Assembly (NCBI GenBank): GCA_048886185.1
Contig: JBHLKY010000038.1
Coordinates: 1-13,472, forward strand
Length of the DNA: 13,472 bases
Direction of reading: 5' to 3'
DNA from: Candidatus Hermodarchaeota archaeon
Lineage (GTDB): Archaea > Asgardarchaeota > Heimdallarchaeia > Hodarchaeales > Hodarchaeaceae
Each line of letters opens with the position of its first letter. The first letter of the stretch is position 1. Below are positions 59 to 13,472 of this stretch, piece by piece. The notes beneath the pieces were generated by a model. The model saw nothing but the letters and a program-made list of their open reading frames with translations. It was not told the DNA's origin and did no database searches. The translations under genes and the position numbers were made by a program.

Positions 59-3028
59 ATGACCGATGTTGCAAGGTATTCAAATAATGGTTTAGGTCTA
101 GATGAGGTTTTTGAGCGCCAACAGCAATTTGGGAAAAATATTCTTCCTAGAAGAAAAAAACGAGCCCCTCTATCTATTTTTTTTGCCCAATTTAAAAATC
201 CCTTAATTTACATCATTACCATCGCTGCACTAATCTCGTTCATTCTAGAACAATATGAAGATACTTTGATCATTGGAGCAGTGATTCTTCTAGATACTGT
301 AATTGGTTTTTTTCAGGAAAATAAAGCTGAAAATACCATGGAAACATTACGAAATCTTTTGAAGCCTACAAATAGGGTTATTCGGGGTGGTAAAATTGAG
401 GAGGTTGAAACTATTGAGATCGTACCTGATGATCTTGTCGTTCTTCATCCTGGTGACAAAATTCCTGCTGATGGAACTGTTATTGAAACAGTAAATTTAT
501 CATTGAATGAGGCAATACTTACAGGTGAGAGTGAACCAATTTTTAAGAATCTAACAGACACAAACCGTGTTTTTATGGGTACTACGGTTATAGCAGGGAG
601 AGGAATTATGAGAGTTACTCAAACTGGAGTAAGAACTGAGCTGGGAAAAATAGCTCACTCTCTCTCTGAAATTGAGGACGAAAAAACCCCACTCCAGATG
701 AAACTAGAGGTATTTGGTAAAACACTTACTATGTTTGTACTTGCTATTAGTATTGCTATCTTTTTCACTGGAGTTCTTTTGAGTTATGATGTATTAGAAA
801 TGATCAGAATGGCAGTGGTTCTCGCCATCGCAGCGATCCCTGAAGGACTTATTATCGCTGTTACTATGATTCTGGCAATTGGAATGCGAAAAACACTCCA
901 ACGAAATGGTTTGGTGAAAAAACTTCTTACTGTTGAAACTCTTGGTTCTGTTACAACAATTTGCACTGATAAAACAGGTACACTTACTGAAGGGAATATG
1001 CAGGTTGTGAGAACTGATTTTAATGATGAAAAGATGGCCTATAACATAATGGTGCTATGTAACAATCAAGAGGATTCTCTTGAAATCCAACTCTGGGATT
1101 ATGTAAAGAACATGGGTTTAGATCCTGAAGAACTTACCAGATCCCATGCTAGGGTTTTTGAAATTCCCTTTTCTAGCGAAAACAAATATATGGTAACAAC
1201 AAATATAATTGACGGTAAAGAGATCAATTTAATGAAAGGTGCGCCAGATATTGTTATGAATATCTGTCAGCTTGAATCAAATGAAAAAAAGGAAATTTTG
1301 ACCCAAATAGATGAATGGTCAAGTTCGGGTTTGAAATTAATAGGTTTGGCTGCTAAAACTGAAGGTGAACTTAAACAATTAAATAATTACACTTGGAAAG
1401 GTTTGATTGGTATAGAGGATCCAATAAGGAAATCAGTAATTGAAGCTATTGCGTTATGTCGTCGGGCCGGTATTAAGGTAAAGATAATCACAGGAGATTA
1501 CCGGAATACCGCGATTAATATCGCTGCGAAATTAGGTTTATTCGTTGGCTCCGATCAGATTCTAGAGGGAATGGATCTAGAGAAATTCTCTGATGACAAA
1601 CTGGATGAGATTGTTGACCAAGTAGTTATTTTCTGCCGTGTTTCCCCTTTTGATAAGTTAAGAATTATTTCTTCTCTTCAACGTCGTGGTGAGATTACTG
1701 CAATGATTGGTGATGGTGTTAATGATGCACCTGCTCTTCGTAAAGCTAATATTGGTGTATCAGTTGGTGGTGCTACTGATGTTGCTCAGGAAACAGCCTC
1801 TCTTATATTATTAGATCATAACTTTAAGACATTAGTCGATGCTGTGGAGGAAGGACGAACTGTTTTCGATAATATCAAGAAGGTTGTTACATATGTTTTA
1901 TCAAATTCTTTTGCTGAAATACTCACCATCTTTGGAGCTTTTGTACTAGGATGGTCATCGCCATTGAATATTGCTCAAATCCTTTGGATCCATTTAATCT
2001 GTGATGGGCCATCCGATATAGCTCTTGGGTTTGAAAAAGCAGAAACAGGAATCATGGATGAACCTCCACGTAAAATAGAAGAAAATATTTTAGATTCTAA
2101 AGGGAAGTTCTTAATCGCTTCTATTAGTTCTTTTTCAGCCATCTTCTGCCTTCTAATTTTTGGGTATTTTCTTTCTATGGGAAATCCACGAATGGGCAGT
2201 ACTTTTGTCTTTGTTATCCTTGCGATTCAATCTTTGACTTATATCTTCTCGTTTAGAAGCTTAAGGCGATCTGTTTTTAAATCAGGTAACTTTTTAGAAA
2301 ATAAAGTACTGTTATTCTCAGTTATTCTGGGTATTTTTCAAATAATCCTAGGCTTGTATATTCCATTTTTTAGTGACCTGTTACAAGTTGAACCTCTACC
2401 TTTCTGGGGATGGGGAGTAATCCTCATTATTTCAATGATTATGATTATTACTGTAGAATTGGTTAAATTTATTGATAGAAAGGATCGCAAAACACCAGCT
2501 TACGAGTTAGTTTTCTCAAAAATCCATCAAATAGAACAGAAACTTTCCACAGTTCACAATCTCCATAATTTATCAGTTGATATCATGGAAGATAAAACCA
2601 TAATACAATTTCACTTTAAAATTCCAGCTGAAACGAGTTTAGAGGTAGCTCATGCAGTATCCAAAAGTCTAGAGGAGCAGATTGCAGAACAATTCCCCAA
2701 TTCGTTGAGAAATCGACTGGAAATCATTAGTCACATCGAACCTGAATATCTTCCAGCGAAGAAAGTACATCATCATCCTCAACCATCGATTACAGCGGAA
2801 ATTCGAGAGAAAATCCAATATGCAGCCAATAAGATTCCCCAAATCAAGAAATGGAGTTATAAAACAATTTTATTTGAGAAAGATATCATCTCATTATCTT
2901 TGACCATCTACTTATCAGGCACAATGAATATTGTATCTGTTCATAACATTAATAACGAACTAGAATCAATGTTAAAGACAAATATTCCAACTCTTAAACG
3001 ATGTATAATACATTCAGAACCTGTTTGA
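59..3028 (+). CDS. Type II (P2A-like) cation-transporting P-type ATPase with C-terminal tandem CDF-type (ZT_dimer-like) domains, 989 aa
   Basis: TGES (521), M4 AAIPEGL (E262), phosphorylation motif DKTGTLT (D304, nt 968), KGAP (K393), TGD (T478), GDGVNDAPAL and ~10 hydrophobic segments. About 180 aa of soluble sequence follow the last TM. Confidence 0.95.
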   Translation: MTDVARYSNNGLGLDEVFERQQQFGKNILPRRKKRAPLSIFFAQFKNPLIYIITIAALISFILEQYEDTLIIGAVILLDTVIGFFQENKAENTMETLRNLLKPTNRVIRGGKIEEVETIEIVPDDLVVLHPGDKIPADGTVIETVNLSLNEAILTGESEPIFKNLTDTNRVFMGTTVIAGRGIMRVTQTGVRTELGKIAHSLSEIEDEKTPLQMKLEVFGKTLTMFVLAISIAIFFTGVLLSYDVLEMIRMAVVLAIAAIPEGLIIAVTMILAIGMRKTLQRNGLVKKLLTVETLGSVTTICTDKTGTLTEGNMQVVRTDFNDEKMAYNIMVLCNNQEDSLEIQLWDYVKNMGLDPEELTRSHARVFEIPFSSENKYMVTTNIIDGKEINLMKGAPDIVMNICQLESNEKKEILTQIDEWSSSGLKLIGLAAKTEGELKQLNNYTWKGLIGIEDPIRKSVIEAIALCRRAGIKVKIITGDYRNTAINIAAKLGLFVGSDQILEGMDLEKFSDDKLDEIVDQVVIFCRVSPFDKLRIISSLQRRGEITAMIGDGVNDAPALRKANIGVSVGGATDVAQETASLILLDHNFKTLVDAVEEGRTVFDNIKKVVTYVLSNSFAEILTIFGAFVLGWSSPLNIAQILWIHLICDGPSDIALGFEKAETGIMDEPPRKIEENILDSKGKFLIASISSFSAIFCLLIFGYFLSMGNPRMGSTFVFVILAIQSLTYIFSFRSLRRSVFKSGNFLENKVLLFSVILGIFQIILGLYIPFFSDLLQVEPLPFWGWGVILIISMIMIITVELVKFIDRKDRKTPAYELVFSKIHQIEQKLSTVHNLHNLSVDIMEDKTIIQFHFKIPAETSLEVAHAVSKSLEEQIAEQFPNSLRNRLEIISHIEPEYLPAKKVHHHPQPSITAEIREKIQYAANKIPQIKKWSYKTILFEKDIISLSLTIYLSGTMNIVSVHNINNELESMLKTNIPTLKRCIIHSEPV
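2510..3025 (+). other. Two tandem cation-diffusion-facilitator C-terminal (YiiP/FieF-like) domains within the ATPase
   Basis: Domain 1 (LHNL...IQFHF...VAHAV...ISHIEP) aligns by eye with E. coli YiiP (AHDL...IQIHL...QAHMV...IIHQDP). Domain 2 ends SVHNI...IIHSEP. The linker contains HHH. Confidence 0.8.
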
Positions 3029-3164
3029 TCATTTTTCAAACCTTTTAAAAAATCCCCGATTACGTCTTCAATGAATCATTACTCTGCGAAGAATAAACCA
3101 AAATTGATGAAAACATTTAAAAAATTGGTAGACAATCCTAAAATCGAACAGAAGTATTTTTACT

Positions 3165-3987: not shown

Positions 3988-4177
3988 TCTTCCCGCATCA
4001 CCTCAACGAAAAATCACCTGTGGCAATATTTTATCGTGTACACATGTTTTTCAATCCCTCCATGAATCCTGGACACACGATTGTACATACCAAAACTTTA
4101 ATTATTCTCAACTTTTTTTCTTCTTATATTATTCTTATTTTTCGGTTGGACTCCTCTTGCTGAATCATCCTCTCGCT

Positions 4178-5782
4178 ATGCGAAGTCTCATTCCTTCATT
4201 CCTGTGTATATTTTCACTCATTCTTATCATCATTCTTTCTGGTTGCATTCAACCTTTGGATCAGGAACAGATCCAGGAAAACATTCCTCCTACCGCTCCT
4301 GAGGTTCTTATCGAACCAGATCCCGCGTTCAGTAATAGTTCCCTCACATGTATTATCATTGTACCTAGTTATGATGCAGATAACGACACTGTCTCATACA
4401 ATTATGAATGGTTTCTGAATGGAAACTCCACGGGTTTAACAGGCGTCTTTGTATTATCGACTTTGACTTCAGTCGGAGATGTATGGGTATGTGTGGTTAC
4501 TCCCTACGACGGGACTGATTACGGTCCTCCTGGGAATGATTCTATAGTGATTTCACAAGTTGAAAGCCCTAGAAACACCCCTCCCTTGGCACCTACTGTT
4601 CTCATTGAACCTGATCCTGCGTACAGTGATGACACTCTTAGCTGTACAATTCTCGTTTCGAGCTATGATGCAGATAATGACACAGTTACTTATTTTTATG
4701 AGTGGTTTCGGAATGGGAGTACAACTGGTTTGATAGGGGAGACTGTTTCTCCTACTCAGACTTCCGTCGGAGATGTATGGGCATGTGTGGTCACCCCCTA
4801 TGATGGAACTGATTACGGTCCTCCTGGAAATGATACCATTGTGATTTCACAAGCTGAAGGCCCTAAAAATACCCCTCCCTCGGCACCTATTGTCCTCATT
4901 GAACCTGATCCCGCATATAGTAATGACACTCTTAGCTGTACAATCCTTGTTTCAAGCTATGATATAGATAATGATCCAATCACTTACTCCTATGAGTGGT
5001 TTCGGAATGGGAGTGCGACTGGTTTGACAGGGGAGACTGTTTCTCCTACTCAGACTTCCGTCGGAGATGTATGGGCATGTGTGGTCACCCCCTATGATGG
5101 AACTGATTACGGTCCTCCTGGAAATGATACTATTGTGATTTCACAAGCTGAAGGACCTGAAAACACCCCTCCCTCGGCACCTAGTGTCCTCATTGAACCT
5201 GATCCTGCATATAGTAATGACACTCTTAGCTGTACAATTCTCGTTTCGAGCTATGATGCAGATAATGACACAGTTACTTATTTTTATGAGTGGTTTCGGA
5301 ATGGAATTACTACTGGGTTAACAGGCGCCTCTGTACCATCAAATCAGACTTTGATTGGAGATGAATGGACATGTGTGGTCACTCCATATGATGGGCTTGA
5401 TTTTGGGCTTTCTGGAAGTGATAGCATTACAATTAAGGTCATTGTTTCGGGTACTTATAATCTCAATCCATCTATTTCTTTTATCTGTGCTTTTGGCTTG
5501 CTTGACTTACAATATACGCAGTTTATCTTTGTAGACTATGGTTCAACACTGGAAATCTGGCCAGCTATGAATGGTGAGGGGTATATGACGGGTTCTTCAG
5601 CATCAGAAGGCACTATAGATGTTAGTTTTTATTCGCCTGGATCCTGTTCTTATCTCTTCACCTTACAGGGGACTTTTATCGATAATGACACTTGGGAGGC
5701 GACATTTACAGTAGAATTTTCTGGTAGCACGTGTTTTGACTGTACTTCTCAATCGTGGCAAATCACAGGAACTAGAGTTTGA
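4178..5782 (+). CDS. Putative lipoprotein/surface adhesin with four Ig/cadherin-like repeats and a Cys-containing C-terminal beta domain (534 aa from ATG 4178; ORF track starts at TTG 4157)
   Basis: Signal peptide MRSLIPSFLCIFSLILIIILSG|C with lipobox LSGC (Cys at 4244-4246). Four 98-aa repeats, 14 N-x-S/T sequons and a ~115-aa C-terminal domain with 4 Cys. Confidence 0.85.
   Translation: MRSLIPSFLCIFSLILIIILSGCIQPLDQEQIQENIPPTAPEVLIEPDPAFSNSSLTCIIIVPSYDADNDTVSYNYEWFLNGNSTGLTGVFVLSTLTSVGDVWVCVVTPYDGTDYGPPGNDSIVISQVESPRNTPPLAPTVLIEPDPAYSDDTLSCTILVSSYDADNDTVTYFYEWFRNGSTTGLIGETVSPTQTSVGDVWACVVTPYDGTDYGPPGNDTIVISQAEGPKNTPPSAPIVLIEPDPAYSNDTLSCTILVSSYDIDNDPITYSYEWFRNGSATGLTGETVSPTQTSVGDVWACVVTPYDGTDYGPPGNDTIVISQAEGPENTPPSAPSVLIEPDPAYSNDTLSCTILVSSYDADNDTVTYFYEWFRNGITTGLTGASVPSNQTLIGDEWTCVVTPYDGLDFGLSGSDSITIKVIVSGTYNLNPSISFICAFGLLDLQYTQFIFVDYGSTLEIWPAMNGEGYMTGSSASEGTIDVSFYSPGSCSYLFTLQGTFIDNDTWEATFTVEFSGSTCFDCTSQSWQITGTRV
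4280..5434 (+). repeat. Intragenic tandem repeat, 4 units with a 294-nt period (starts 4280, 4574, 4868, 5162)
   Basis: Each unit reads N(T/I)PP-x-AP...L(S/T)C...YDxDND...YEWFxNG...WxCVVTPYDG. Identical nucleotide blocks: 4735-4836 = 5029-5130 (102 nt) and 4629-4716 = 5217-5304 (88 nt). Confidence 0.97.
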
Positions 5783-6790: not shown

Positions 6791-7145
6791 TAATTTTATT
6801 CTACACATTACGAAATGACCAAACAGCCAAACCAAGAACAGAAAAAACAGGGATTCTTGTTGTTATGGTATTTCTTCTTCACCAATATATTCGCTACCAG
6901 TTCCATAGATCCAATAGTAGTTTTGAGTGGGAAGTCTTATTACATTAGAAAAATGATCAAACTTAGTTTTTGAAAATTGTCAATTGATTGTTAGTAAAAA
7001 CTGACACATTTTTAGATAATACTTTATCAAATAATCATGATTAGAACCAGATGTTTTTTGTGCAATCATATCCATATGCAATAAAAAGCCTTATTAGGAA
7101 TGAAAATGGTATTTCTCATTGTCATCATTTCGATGGAGAAAAATT

Positions 7146-7838
7146 ATGTCAAATAAGGTAATATTTATCTTGCTGAAAATATTTACAGTAGTTGCAGTAC
7201 TTGCTTTCATTAATGTACTATTAATCTTATTCTTTCCTGAAGTTTATATGACTACTAATTTCTCGATTACTCTTATATTATTTAATATCTTTATTGCTGT
7301 TGATAAAGCTGCTCAACCATTCCTTGTTTACGACCAAAAAGGTAAAAAAGCTAAAAAAGAGCTTTATAAAGCTCTTTCAATGTTCCTTCTTCTTTTTATG
7401 ATTCCCTTGATAGTTTCACTTCCCTATCTTGAATATTCCTTAATTCAAAAGATGATACTCTTTCCAGAGTTAACTTGGATGTTCTGGATTCTGGGTACCC
7501 TGATGATTATAATTGGAGGATTTTTGTTGTGTATAAGTCGGATTATTCTTGGCAGAGAGAGTTCAATAGTAATAGGGATTGAAAAAGATCATAAACTAGT
7601 CACCAAAGGACCCTATCACATCATTCGTCATCCTATTTATGTTGGAAGTTCATTTCTTTTCCTTGGCTATTCACTTTCATTTTCTAGTTTGATTTGTTCG
7701 ATTGTTATTTTATTAATTCTCGTGTTGTGGTTAAATAAAAGAATGACTTTAGAAGAGAAATTATTGATTGAAGCCTTTGGGGACGACTATCGCAATTATA
7801 TGAAGCATACAAAGCGATTGATTCCCTTTATTTATTAG
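7146..7838 (+). CDS. Isoprenylcysteine carboxyl methyltransferase (ICMT/Ste14/PEMT-like) membrane methyltransferase, 230 aa
   Basis: HKLVTKGPYHIIRHPIYVG and EEKLLIEAFGDDYRNYMKHTKRLIPFIY family motifs, multiple TM helices, and GGAGA RBS at 7135-7139 before ATG 7146 (ORF track starts at TTG 7119). Confidence 0.88.
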   Translation: MSNKVIFILLKIFTVVAVLAFINVLLILFFPEVYMTTNFSITLILFNIFIAVDKAAQPFLVYDQKGKKAKKELYKALSMFLLLFMIPLIVSLPYLEYSLIQKMILFPELTWMFWILGTLMIIIGGFLLCISRIILGRESSIVIGIEKDHKLVTKGPYHIIRHPIYVGSSFLFLGYSLSFSSLICSIVILLILVLWLNKRMTLEEKLLIEAFGDDYRNYMKHTKRLIPFIY

Positions 7839-8929: not shown

Positions 8930-9436
8930 ATGAATTATAAAATCATATTAGCGGGAGATGAAGGAGTTGGGAAGACCTCTCTAGTCAATCGTTTTGTCCA
9001 TGGATTCTTAGCTGGTGAATACAAAGCAACTATAGGTGTTGACCTTTATACAAAACAGGTATTTGTTGGTAATTCTGAAGTAAATTTACAAATCTGGGAT
9101 GTCGCAGGCCAAACATCGTTTCGCCAATTCCGCCAAAGATTTTTCAGTGGTGCACGAGGGGCATTCTTAGTATTCGACTTAACGGTTCCTAAAAGTCTAG
9201 ACAATCTTCATACATCATGGATAGAGGATCTCCAAAACATCGCAGGGGATATTCCAGTAATTTTAATCGGAAATAAAATAGATTTAAGAGAATTGGTCGC
9301 TGTCTCACATCAAGATATTAACTATTTTTTAACCCACCATTCTAATGTTGAGGAACATTTCATTACTTCTGCTTTAACGGGTGAAAATGTAGAGAATGCT
9401 TTTCTTAAATTGACTTCGCTCATGAAACAGTCATAA
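8930..9436 (+). CDS. Rab-like small GTPase (Ras superfamily), 168 aa, no C-terminal prenylation motif
   Basis: G1 GDEGVGKTS, G2 ATIG, G3 WDVAGQ, G4 GNKID, G5 TSAL. RabF-like segments IGVDL, LQIWD, FFSGA and LVFDLT. Confidence 0.93.
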   Translation: MNYKIILAGDEGVGKTSLVNRFVHGFLAGEYKATIGVDLYTKQVFVGNSEVNLQIWDVAGQTSFRQFRQRFFSGARGAFLVFDLTVPKSLDNLHTSWIEDLQNIAGDIPVILIGNKIDLRELVAVSHQDINYFLTHHSNVEEHFITSALTGENVENAFLKLTSLMKQS

Positions 9437-10881: not shown

Positions 10882-11790
10882 TTAGAATTGTGCTAGATTC
10901 CCTGTTTTTTTGGCTTGTGTAACTGTGTAATGAAAAATCCAAAGACCAATAATAGGAAAAGTTATTCCAAGGAAAATGACAAACAATATTTGGATATTAA
11001 CAAAGAGTAATGGATCAACTCCTAAGCTTTGATTGAATACCATCGCAATTTCAGTTATTGTATTTCCACTTATAGTTGATTTTACTAAGTCAATACCATA
11101 AGAAATTGGGAATAACAAAGATAATATGACTGCTGGTCCTAATAAACTTATTGGGAAGAACACTCCTGAGAAAATCATGAAAGTAAATTCTAATAATCCC
11201 AAAAGGGGTTGCATGGCTTCTTTTAGCCTTAATGCTAGCCCGGCAAGCGTAAAAGAAAGTCCTAAAGTTGAAATTAGTGTGAAAAATATATAGATCCAAA
11301 GAGAAAGGTTGGTTAGATCAATCTGAATATCACCTACAGCAAAAGTAACTATCAAATATGTAAAAGGAATGAATATAATATTCAAGATGATTGTATATGT
11401 CATCCGTGAAAACATATTTGCAAGGGTTGAAGAAGGAGAAAGGAAAATTGTTTCCAATGTACCTGTAATCTGTTCATTCCGAAGACTGTTCCCTACATTA
11501 TATATACCAGTAATTATGAAGTAGTAAATAATGAAGCCAAAAAAGATACTAGTTCCAGTAAAGGCGGTAGTTAATCCCACCTTACTATCTGTTGGAAGAA
11601 AGGCTTTCGCTGAAAAAGTAAAAAACAAGATAATTATTATAATTTGAATAAAATTCATTAAAAAAGCAATGGGGTAACGAAATTGGATTAAAATTTCCTT
11701 TTTAGACATTTTCAGCCATTGATACCAAAAAGATCCATTTGAACGTATGGGATGATCTGTAGAAAAGTTCGTATGCTTCAATTCTCTCAC
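10882..11790 (-). CDS. ABC-2 type exporter permease, 302 aa
   Basis: About 6 TM with the ABC-2 signature LRNEQITGTLETIFLSP and FSGVFFPISLL...LFPISYGIDL. GTG start lies 4 nt after the upstream permease stop. Confidence 0.9.
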   Translation of the reverse strand: MRELKHTNFSTDHPIRSNGSFWYQWLKMSKKEILIQFRYPIAFLMNFIQIIIIILFFTFSAKAFLPTDSKVGLTTAFTGTSIFFGFIIYYFIITGIYNVGNSLRNEQITGTLETIFLSPSSTLANMFSRMTYTIILNIIFIPFTYLIVTFAVGDIQIDLTNLSLWIYIFFTLISTLGLSFTLAGLALRLKEAMQPLLGLLEFTFMIFSGVFFPISLLGPAVILSLLFPISYGIDLVKSTISGNTITEIAMVFNQSLGVDPLLFVNIQILFVIFLGITFPIIGLWIFHYTVTQAKKTGNLAQF

Positions 11791-11794
11791 TTCC

Positions 11795-12676
11795 TTAATA
11801 GCTAGAAAAGCCCTCTCTTTTCTGAACGCTTTTTTCGACCCTTGTGAAAAACCAAATAGAGATCATGGGAATAAAGAAGGCAAATGCCAAGATTATACCA
11901 AAATCAACGTAAAAATTGACAAAATAATTTGCTTCAAATAAAACTGCTCTAAGGGCATTATTAACCCAAGTTAGTGGAAGAATTAGACTTAATAGCTGTA
12001 AAATAACAGGAAATACTGTAATTGGATAAAATACTCCTAATAAAAAGCTGAAGACCCAATTAACCACGGAAATTAGGGAATTGACATCTTTAAAGCGTAA
12101 AACAGCAGCACCAAAAATTAATGAAAGACCGAAAAGGGGGAAAACACCAATGACAAAAAGAAGAGCTGCTAGGATCAATGTCGGTTGAAGATATGCGCCA
12201 ATAGGAATAGCGAAAAGAATTGAACCTAGAATCAATGCGAATATGAAAGAAAGACCGTTTCTAACCATAACATAAAGTGAGGTTCCAGTCAATAGCCAAA
12301 TTCGATCTGTAGGGGTGGAGTAAAGAGTTTCTAGGGTTCCTTGCATCTGTTCTCGTCGTAACCAGTACCCAAAATTCCATAGTGAATTTGATACCAAGTT
12401 GAAAAATAACGTACCTAATAGTAAAAATCCAGCATAGTTTCCTGTCCCAGTTTTCGCTTCAAAACTTATTCGTGCACTTTCAGGAGATCCAGCTATAGCT
12501 GGTCCCATTAATATAGGGAGAGCTGCAAGCATAACTGGAGTTATGACTGACATCAATACTTGGCCTTTATACCGTCCATATGTCAGGAGTCGGGTAATGA
12601 ATACATCTCTGGTTATTTTTAAATTTGATCGGATATCTGGATTGTAGACTTTCCCCTCTGTAAAATATTTAATCAT
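11795..12676 (-). CDS. ABC-2 type exporter permease, 293 aa from ATG 12676
   Basis: LRREQMQGTLETLYSTP and LLGVFYPITVFP...LPLTWVNNALR. The ORF-track start at 12742 overlaps the ATPase gene; ATG 12676 lies 7 nt after its stop. Confidence 0.9.
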   Translation of the reverse strand: MIKYFTEGKVYNPDIRSNLKITRDVFITRLLTYGRYKGQVLMSVITPVMLAALPILMGPAIAGSPESARISFEAKTGTGNYAGFLLLGTLFFNLVSNSLWNFGYWLRREQMQGTLETLYSTPTDRIWLLTGTSLYVMVRNGLSFIFALILGSILFAIPIGAYLQPTLILAALLFVIGVFPLFGLSLIFGAAVLRFKDVNSLISVVNWVFSFLLGVFYPITVFPVILQLLSLILPLTWVNNALRAVLFEANYFVNFYVDFGIILAFAFFIPMISIWFFTRVEKSVQKREGFSSY

Positions 12677-12683
12677 AACGGCG

Positions 12684-13472
12684 TCACATCTTAATACTTG
12701 TGTCTGTTGATAAAGATCTCCCAGTTTTTTGAATAAACACATCTTCTAATGAGACTTCTTTCGGATTGATGAAAGAGATACGCCCCTTAAATTTGGTAAT
12801 GGTATCTAAAATTTGAGACATTCGCTGTTTTGCATCGTCCACAATAAGCGATATCTCTTCCTTATCACCCAAATTTATACACGCGGCTCGTTTCACGCCA
12901 GTAAGTTCTTGAAGTTCCTTAATAAGAAGTGTAAAATCTGGAAACATTCCTTCTATTGATATGATCTCATCTTGCTCTAATTCTTCTTTTAAAACATCTG
13001 GATGATCAAAAGCAATTTTTTCTCCATGATCAATAATCAAAACTTTCTCCTTACCATTATCAATCAATTCTTCAATTTCACTCATGATATGGGTTGAATA
13101 AAGAATTGTTTTCCCAGTTTGGTGTAATTGTTTCACGATTTTGCGTAAATCTTTTCCTCCCTGCACATCCATCGCAATTGTTGGCTCATCTAAAATCAAA
13201 ATTGGCGGATCCGATATGAGTGCACGTCCAAATGCAAATTTCATCTTTTGGCCTGAAGAATAAGTCTCAACAGGGCGATCTGCAAAGGAATTTAGACTCA
13301 TTAAATCAAGAATTGATTGAACACGATCTTTTGCTTCATTGGATGGGACATGGTACAAGGTTGAAAAGAATTCCAAATTCTCTCTTCCAGTTAATTTCCA
13401 ATAAAGTCCTCGTTCACCCATTAACATGGCTCCAATTGACGCTTTAATTTTATTTTCTTGATCAGGAGAATA
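12684..13472 (-). CDS. ABC exporter ATP-binding subunit, 5'-partial (frame open to the window edge)
   Basis: Frame stays open from 13472 (YSPDQENKIKASIGAMLMGERGLY...). Signature YSSGQKMK, Walker B ILILDEPT and H-loop STH are present; Walker A must lie outside the window. Confidence 0.93.
   Translation of the reverse strand, partial: YSPDQENKIKASIGAMLMGERGLYWKLTGRENLEFFSTLYHVPSNEAKDRVQSILDLMSLNSFADRPVETYSSGQKMKFAFGRALISDPPILILDEPTIAMDVQGGKDLRKIVKQLHQTGKTILYSTHIMSEIEELIDNGKEKVLIIDHGEKIAFDHPDVLKEELEQDEIISIEGMFPDFTLLIKELQELTGVKRAACINLGDKEEISLIVDDAKQRMSQILDTITKFKGRISFINPKEVSLEDVFIQKTGRSLSTDTSIKM

Follow-up and report, generated by a model that had tools for sequence, protein, structure and literature searches.

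We report a gene that joins a P-type ATPase to two C-terminal domains (CTDs) of a type known from cation diffusion facilitators (CDFs). It lies in a 13,472-nucleotide stretch of DNA (the window, from contig JBHLKY010000038.1 of assembly GCA_048886185.1) of a Candidatus Hermodarchaeota archaeon, one of the Asgard archaea (Hodarchaeales). The fusion is real, not an artefact of assembly, and its tail consists of genuine CDF-type CTDs with an intact set of candidate ligands resembling site C of the CDF antiporter YiiP. Based on these observations, on phylogenetic trees and on structure predictions, we propose a model in which a pump of an Asgard sub-clade captured a two-domain cassette from a CDF antiporter with several CTDs and probably uses it now as a sensor of its own for transition metal in the cytosol.

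A P-type ATPase with a tandem CDF-type tail

The gene is the first of the window. A single open frame without internal stop runs from an ATG at 59, preceded by a Shine-Dalgarno-like GGTGA at 50-54, to a stop codon at 3026-3028 (Table 1). In the core of the protein the Pfam domains follow the order expected for a P-type ATPase (Cation_ATPase_N, E1-E2_ATPase, Hydrolase/Cation_ATPase and, at residues 634-805, Cation_ATPase_C), and the catalytic motifs are complete and invariant among homologues: TGES 155-158, DKTGT 304-308, KGAPD 393-397, TGD 478-480 and GDGVNDAPAL 551-560. The P-type ATPase model of the HAD-IC family, TIGR01494, is matched with 314 bits against a cut-off of 62.3, and the closest solved pump cores are LMCA1 (E 1e-140) and SPCA1 (E 1e-133). 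The gene appears to encode a working, ten-helix, P2-like P-type ATPase of an uncharacterised family; this is one part of a joint explanation that we hold, as a whole, to be somewhat probable. In public databases such pumps bear generic names, 'HAD-IC family P-type ATPase' or 'Ca2+-transporting ATPase'.

Is the junction between the last membrane helix (M10) and the tail authentic? The window begins at a contig end, 58 nt before the gene, which might favour an assembly chimera or the read-through of two genes. We put the probability of either at practically nil, and both are ruled out by the unbroken frame, by the recurrence of this architecture in seven genomes of its genus and, across four sources, in dozens of independent contigs, and by contigs that bridge the junction. 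Besides the organism's own genome, 6 of the 21 other species-level genomes assigned to its GTDB genus have the pump-tail fusion (7/22 in total), with open frames of 994-1017 aa where the contigs allow. There are 29 full-length fused protein clusters, drawn from NCBI, JGI, ENA and Logan, with the source names Promethearchaeota, Candidatus Hodarchaeum mangrovi, Heimdallarchaeota and Lokiarchaeota. Logan contigs of two sequencing runs cross nt 2474, one covering 2351-3100 with 0 differences and the other 1973-2547, so that the join placed near nt 2470 by the original prediction is borne out.

The same prediction had read the soluble segment after M10 as a CDF CTD, and profile and fold comparisons agree. 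Past residue 805 Pfam detects ZT_dimer (PF16916), a metal-binding cytoplasmic domain that as a rule occurs on CDF metal/proton antiporters alone, in two stretches, with 52.4 bits for the whole protein. The tail alone reaches 59.2 bits (E 4e-16; gathering cut-off 26.7), the first domain alone (nt 2510-2743) 38.5 bits and the second (nt 2804-3022) 24.2 bits, slightly below the cut-off. The best matches of the tail alone in NCBIfam are CDFs of the FieF, MntE and Mam types. The protein itself is not a CDF transporter: the six-helix Cation_efflux membrane domain (PF01545), seat of the TM2/TM5 metal quartet, finds no match anywhere in the 989 aa, and the CDF model TIGR01297 gives 22.5 against a cut-off of 82.35, matching the tail only. 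AlphaFold2 models of the tail (mean pLDDT, the predicted local confidence, 79 and 85.5) consist of two alpha-beta-beta-alpha-beta domains and a low-confidence linker, the first domain beginning about 8 residues past M10. With Foldseek the tail model matches the CTDs of MamM, CzcD and CzrB, the MamM target at a TM-score of 0.85-0.90 and a root-mean-square deviation of 1.3 A.

In E. coli YiiP, site C is formed by H232, H248, H283 and D285 together with H261 from the other protomer (PMC6465983), the residues that the original prediction had taken as its reference. Domain 1 carries the full set, and the five residues named earlier are correct in identity and position: H836 (nt 2564), H852 (nt 2612), H865 (nt 2651), H892 (nt 2732) and E894 (nt 2738). 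A phmmer alignment of residues 833-896 to the solved CzrB CTD matches all of them (His/His/His/His/Glu). The ligand spacing is 16/13/27/2, compared with 16/13/22/2 in YiiP; the first two intervals are identical, as had been noted, and the third contains a five-residue insertion before the last strand, seen as a gap of five in the CzrB alignment. Domain 2 lacks equivalents of H232 and H248 and is left with three of the five YiiP ligands, namely H962 at the H261 position and H985 and E987 at those of H283 and D285; C982 is also present. In 12 fused homologues (tail identity 43-88%) the five ligands of domain 1 are invariant, and so are H904, H906, H962, C982, H985 and E987. In a wider comparison of 24 pump tails and 19 cassettes from CDFs, whose overall identity to the tail in the window is just 24-47%, all 11 candidate ligands (8 His, 2 Glu and 1 Cys) are kept nearly everywhere.

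Table 1. Features of the pump gene and its upstream region (positions in the window)
Feature	Position	Strand	Basis or remark
Whole gene, 989-aa P-type ATPase with tandem CDF-CTD tail	59..3028	+	ORF, Pfam
Pump core, residues 1-805	59..2473	+	Pfam domains, catalytic motifs
M4 motif PEGL, residues 261-264	839..850	+	E262 = SERCA E309 equivalent
M5 motif LSNSFAEI, residues 614-621	1898..1921	+	S617 = N768 position, E620 = E771
M6 motif WIHLICDGPSD, residues 643-653	1985..2017	+	H645 = N796, C648 = T799, D649 = D800 position
CTD domain 1, residues 814-895, alpha-beta-beta-alpha-beta	2498..2743	+	Pfam, phmmer, AlphaFold2, Foldseek
Low-confidence linker, residues 896-912	2744..2794	+	Conserved H904 (nt 2768), H906 (nt 2774)
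CTD domain 2, residues 913-989	2795..3025	+	Pfam, AlphaFold2, alignment
AT-rich palindrome TTAATT-C-AATTAA	31..43	.	Upstream of start; not part of the feature

Pump family and ion pocket

Over M5-M10, identity within the class is 73-100% for the fused orthologues and just 38-42% for the pumps that come next. A wider search, of 5.8 billion proteins, revealed a large family of pumps without a tail, about 806-876 aa long and 53-65% identical, with the source names Bathyarchaeota, Thermoproteota, Hermodarchaeota, Chloroflexi, Anaerolineae and the DPANN archaeon Tiddalikarchaeum. Genome contigs, when scanned, contribute numerous Chloroflexota, Bacillota and Bathyarchaeia records to the family and no further fused loci, the patterns of the scan being unspecific and returning mostly tail-less bacterial relatives; an Atlas search gave generic Ca-ATPase clusters only. 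We define this 'WIHLICDGP' family by the motifs IPEGL in M4, LS(N/D)SFAE in M5 and WIHLICDGPxD in M6 and by at least 53% identity over M5-M10. The window protein has all three motifs. The M6 motif, or a variant with its His, Cys and Asp kept, occurs in 121/121 family proteins examined, tailed or not, and nearly all of these also have the M4 and M5 motifs. The family forms one clade against outgroup pumps, with a Shimodaira-Hasegawa-like approximate likelihood ratio test (SH-aLRT) value of 100.

In the tree of pump cores, all 29 tail-bearing pumps fall inside one clade of 31 (SH-aLRT 85), whose other two members are tail-less DPANN proteins nested inside it. These two, P0191 and P0251 of Candidatus Tiddalikarchaeum anstoanum, are annotated 'Copper-exporting P-type ATPase B', a label that their motifs (M4 IPEGL and the family M5 and M6) do not support. 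Their nesting suggests loss of the tail, perhaps after transfer to a DPANN archaeon.

What ion does such a pump carry? The Ca2+ sites of SERCA are built from E309, N768, E771, N796, T799, D800 and E908. When the pocket is mapped onto SERCA numbering through the LMCA1 and SPCA1 alignments, the carboxylates E309, E771 and D800 are kept (E262, E620 and D649), and the other four positions are replaced, N768 by S617, N796 by H645, T799 by C648 and E908 by S725. LMCA1 of Listeria and SPCA1/PMR1, P2A pumps for Ca2+ or Ca2+ and Mn2+, have in common with the window pump the ten-helix layout, the PEGL of M4 and the Asp of M6; they differ in having Asn where the pump has the M6 His, and the pump's Cys stands where SERCA has Thr, LMCA1 Asn and SPCA1 Met. 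The pump also keeps an M5 Glu where both have Ala, and none of them has a CTD tail. The original prediction had called the protein a P2 ATPase, and the P2-like scaffold stands. An assignment to the Ca2+-ATPases of group P2A does not, given the four replaced residues out of seven and the scores against the curated models (PMR1/SPCA TIGR01522, 565.4 against a cut-off of 798.3; SERCA TIGR01116, 468.5 against 703.4). Nor is the protein a P1B pump: M4 reads IPEGL where a CPx-type motif is required, TIGR01525 gives 263.6 against 346.25, and no heavy-metal-associated (HMA) domain is matched. It falls below every curated NCBIfam cut-off for named pump classes.

A pocket in which His and Cys join three carboxylates suggests that the ion is a borderline transition metal, and what the pump exports from the cytoplasm would then be a divalent transition metal, not Ca2+. 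The His/Cys pair had been described earlier as consistent with the metal-sensing tail. It is a family trait common to about 90 tail-less relatives, and the pocket is consequently older than the tail.

A contrary reading keeps the pump as a Ca2+/Mn2+-type P2A ATPase, whose tail would sense a different metal (cross-regulation) or be a neutral leftover of the fusion. The best profile and structure matches, which are Ca pumps of the PMR1/SPCA and LMCA1 types, point that way, as does the retention of E262, E620 and D649. We nevertheless think this very unlikely, in view of the curated scores just given and of the His and Cys that replace N796 and T799 throughout the family members examined.

Source of the tail

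An exhaustive profile search with the tail over 1.8 billion representatives returned 763 matches. The best of them are mostly proteins of 460-520 aa, and those sampled consist of a Cation_efflux membrane domain and, after it, two or three ZT_dimer stretches that were detected, with five in one protein. In CDFs with three CTDs, the second and the third domain correspond to the pump tail. Such CDFs, uncharacterised proteins of Asgard and other archaea, supply its nearest relatives: P0016, with 47% identity to the window's tail along 174 aa, a match that takes in an HHHP linker and a C-terminal KRCIIH(S/T)EP motif, and the Promethearchaeota protein P0021 (MHA1729583.1), with 34%. The pump tail agrees with them in its 11 ligand positions, in the linker and in a KRCxIHxEP motif at the C-terminus, whereas their cassette follows the membrane domain and a first CTD, and that of the pump follows M10. 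In the cassette tree, 25 two-domain pump tails form one clade (SH-aLRT 98), with P0016 as its sister (SH-aLRT 100) and CDF cassettes around it. The idea that the sensor was borrowed from a secondary transporter holds because the tails are nested in this way among CDF CTD modules; the donor suggested originally, a generic single CTD of the YiiP type, gives way to a two-domain cassette. Derivation of the tail from CDFs is shown.

A second type of tail is present in four pumps of 1063-1068 aa with three ZT_dimer domains. Over its whole length it shares 42% identity (E 2e-67) with the CTD triplet of another CDF, P0058, and only about 25% with the two-domain pump tails; in the cassette tree it is placed with P0058, P0142 and P0158. 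The maximum-likelihood tree parts the two tail types by starred branches. Since the approximately unbiased (AU) test does not reject a single clade for both (p 0.18), the case for separate origins rests mainly on the pairwise identities, which suggest two captures, or a replacement, of the tail. Repeated capture would argue for a selected function. Together with the strong conservation of the tail ligands, it speaks against a neutral remnant.

In the CDFs nearest to the pump tail the transport quartet is DD-ND and contains no His. In the reading of the pump as a Ca2+/Mn2+ transporter this all-oxygen/amide quartet would be a further point in favour, as it would suit a hard ion such as Mn2+.

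CDFs with three, and up to five, tandem ZT_dimer domains are widespread in their own right. Of 400 Asgard genomes searched with the tail, 194 gave a match, for the most part in frames about 470-500 aa long, and P0019 and P0043 are further examples beside P0016 and P0021. The organism's own genome has a three-CTD CDF (contig 21, 976-2394, minus strand; quartet HD-HD), which was rejected as donor, being only 24% identical to the window's tail. Tandem CTDs are also seen without a detected membrane domain. P0042 (265 aa, three ZT_dimer stretches) may be a free-standing cassette or, as its contig measures 934 nt, a fragment; two further frames fall in the same category, with lengths of 261-281 aa (G004:C1:1519142-1519624 and G002:C1:1476543-1477019).

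Domain packing, proposed mechanism and wider meaning

How might the two domains be arranged? Domain 1 (residues 808-900) and domain 2 (905-989) were modelled as separate chains with 43-sequence alignments and three Zn. The complex score was 0.81, compared with 0.00 for the best of three controls; among solved complexes 58 of 80 reach the mark on this score, and among mismatched pairs 2 of 110. Between runs, 95% or more of the contacts agree, and partner pLDDT is at least 85. The contacts of lowest predicted error include H892-H985, E894-H962 and H865-E987 with its neighbours. This is the same reciprocal arrangement as that by which H261 of YiiP completes the site of the other protomer, so that one full binuclear and one partial site are predicted, which fits the selective loss of the H232 and H248 equivalents from domain 2. 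The original prediction had the tail giving metal-gated activity or dimerisation. The model leans towards an intramolecular pseudo-dimer of the two domains over dimers of the pump.

When metal binds to CDFs, their CTDs close and transport activity goes up (PMC10710835). We propose that the captured cassette works in a similar manner. Its two domains would pack together as an intramolecular copy of the CDF CTD dimer. H836, H852, H892 and E894 of domain 1, with H962 of domain 2, would make up a complete binuclear site of the YiiP type, and H985 and E987 of domain 2, with H865 of domain 1, a partial reciprocal one; H904 and H906 of the linker may supply extra ligands. As cytosolic metal rises, it would bind the cassette, which would close and stiffen. 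Closure could then be relayed through the short link to M10, or by contact with the cytoplasmic domains, and switch pumping on. Such a metal-driven switch would match the allosteric role proposed for CDF CTDs and be analogous to the metal-binding domains of P1B pumps. We infer metal binding by the tail, the geometry of the pseudo-dimer, the direction of regulation and the substrate, and on balance we lean towards direct sensing of cytosolic transition metal that gates export.

Several points weigh against this proposal. About 87 of 116 full-length family members do without a tail, and no conserved neighbours or regulator accompany the pump among five orthologous loci. The score of 0.81 may reflect the model's memory of solved CTD homodimers, and our own alignments and the riding Zn depart from the calibration of the complex tool. 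Single-chain AlphaFold2 models, made without metal, pack the domains differently (predicted TM-score, pTM, 0.68 with 12 sequences and 0.49 with 43). The DD-ND quartet of the CDFs that share the cassette, set against the His-rich ligands of the tail, indicates no one obvious ion. Site C of YiiP has been argued to be a permanently occupied structural site, in which case the tail would be a static element (PMC6465983).

This last point leads to a view of the tail as a structural or oligomerisation element, permanently loaded with metal and paired with that of a second pump (D1-D1' and D2-D2'), which would give a dimeric or stabilised pump and no sensing. We consider it unlikely, if worth keeping in mind. 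The closest solved pumps, LMCA1 and SPCA1, which we take to be monomers, count against it, as do the heterotypic model with its reciprocal cross-domain ligand contacts and the ligand loss in domain 2, which fits an asymmetric pseudo-dimer. In its favour are the dimerisation of CDF CTDs, the poorly fixed orientation of the two domains in the deeper-alignment AlphaFold2 model (pTM 0.49), the existence of pumps with three CTDs, the first of which could be the dimerising one, and the description of YiiP site C as having very high affinity and being possibly static (PMC6465983).

It is also conceivable, and in our judgement quite unlikely, that the tail, in place of acting as an allosteric switch, is a chaperone or buffer that collects metal and hands it over to the pump at its cytoplasmic entry. 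In P1B pumps, the metal-binding domains at the N-terminus serve delivery or regulation, which lends the idea some plausibility; the CTD sites of CDFs lie far from the transport path and, to our knowledge, do not hand over metal. The His-rich ligand set, with 8 conserved His plus Glu and Cys, and the metallochaperone-like fold of the CTD (PMC10710835) would be in keeping with a hand-over, whereas a bridged binuclear site resembles a stable rather than a transfer site (PMC6465983).

The palindrome upstream of the start had been put forward as consistent with metal control. It was rejected as an operator: the closest orthologue, with a 91% identical protein, lacks the left arm and has the right arm and the Shine-Dalgarno region only, and more distant orthologues share nothing. 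The pump's neighbours in the window have no metal-related Pfam matches, and no RNA run is listed as containing the stretch. At 4157-5782 (+), in a stretch with a G+C content of 0.42-0.44, compared with about 0.33 nearby, a gene encodes a 541-aa protein without Pfam match, lipoprotein-like in having an N-terminal hydrophobic segment followed by a Cys, and with four tandem repeats of about 100 aa (motifs EPDPAYS, SYDADND, YEWF and CVVTPYDG). A 168-aa Ras-family small GTPase (PF00071, E 3.6e-42; 8930-9436, +) is a typical eukaryote-like signature protein of Asgard archaea. About 1 kb upstream of it lies a PEMT/ICMT-family membrane methyltransferase, resembling phospholipid or isoprenylcysteine carboxyl methyltransferases (7119-7838, +). 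Two adjoining ABC-2-type permease genes and an ORF running off the window end occupy 10882-13472 (-).

How does the fusion compare with known systems? YiiP/FieF of E. coli and Shewanella resembles domain 1 in fold and in its five ligand positions, and the cross-domain contacts of the model mimic the bridge made by H261'. It has one CTD per protomer and a CDF membrane domain, whereas the pump has two CTDs in one chain and no such membrane domain, with the incomplete ligand set of domain 2, the inserted residues and an extra conserved His-x-His linker as further differences. P1B ATPases (CopA, ZntA, plant HMA2/4), whose terminal metal-binding domains are of the HMA or His-rich kind, are likewise primary metal pumps with a regulatory domain that binds metal at a cytosolic terminus (PMC10654040); they differ in membrane topology, in the CPx motif of their M4 equivalent and in the fold family and origin of the sensor. 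The autoinhibitory R domains of P2B pumps (PMCA, ACA) are likewise terminal extensions that set activity by the level of the transported ion (PMC10654040), but they are short disordered peptides acting through calmodulin, and the tail described here is a folded pair that would bind metal directly. A 2023 review of the regulatory domains of P-type ATPases does not list a CDF-type CTD among them (PMC10654040). In agreement with the original prediction, full-text literature searches found no description of such a CTD on a P-type ATPase, nor of CDFs with tandem CTDs, although absence there is no proof. A metal pump with a terminal metal-binding regulatory domain is thus already known; the type of sensor domain, on an uncharacterised pump family, is new here and apparently undescribed.

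What are the implications? Terminal regulatory domains, such as HMA domains, calmodulin-binding R domains and the tails of H+-ATPases, are central to the biology of P-type ATPases. More speculatively, and only as a tentative possibility, the 'WIHLICDGP' pumps might be a new class of transition-metal exporters on a P2 scaffold, and the multi-CTD cassette a portable, self-contained allosteric switch, a pseudo-dimer needing no transporter dimer, added on at least two independent occasions to a primary pump that is not related to CDFs. The finding also draws attention to CDFs with three to five CTDs, a class that is widespread. Should the pump be gated by its tail, the CTD of CDFs would prove to be a metal switch that can be transferred, not confined to working within a CDF dimer, and nature would have provided a single-chain CTD 'dimer' in which the allostery of site C could be studied free of homodimer symmetry. 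It would also hint at the class of substrate carried by a large, unstudied family of pumps with a His/Cys pocket in anaerobic bacteria and archaea.

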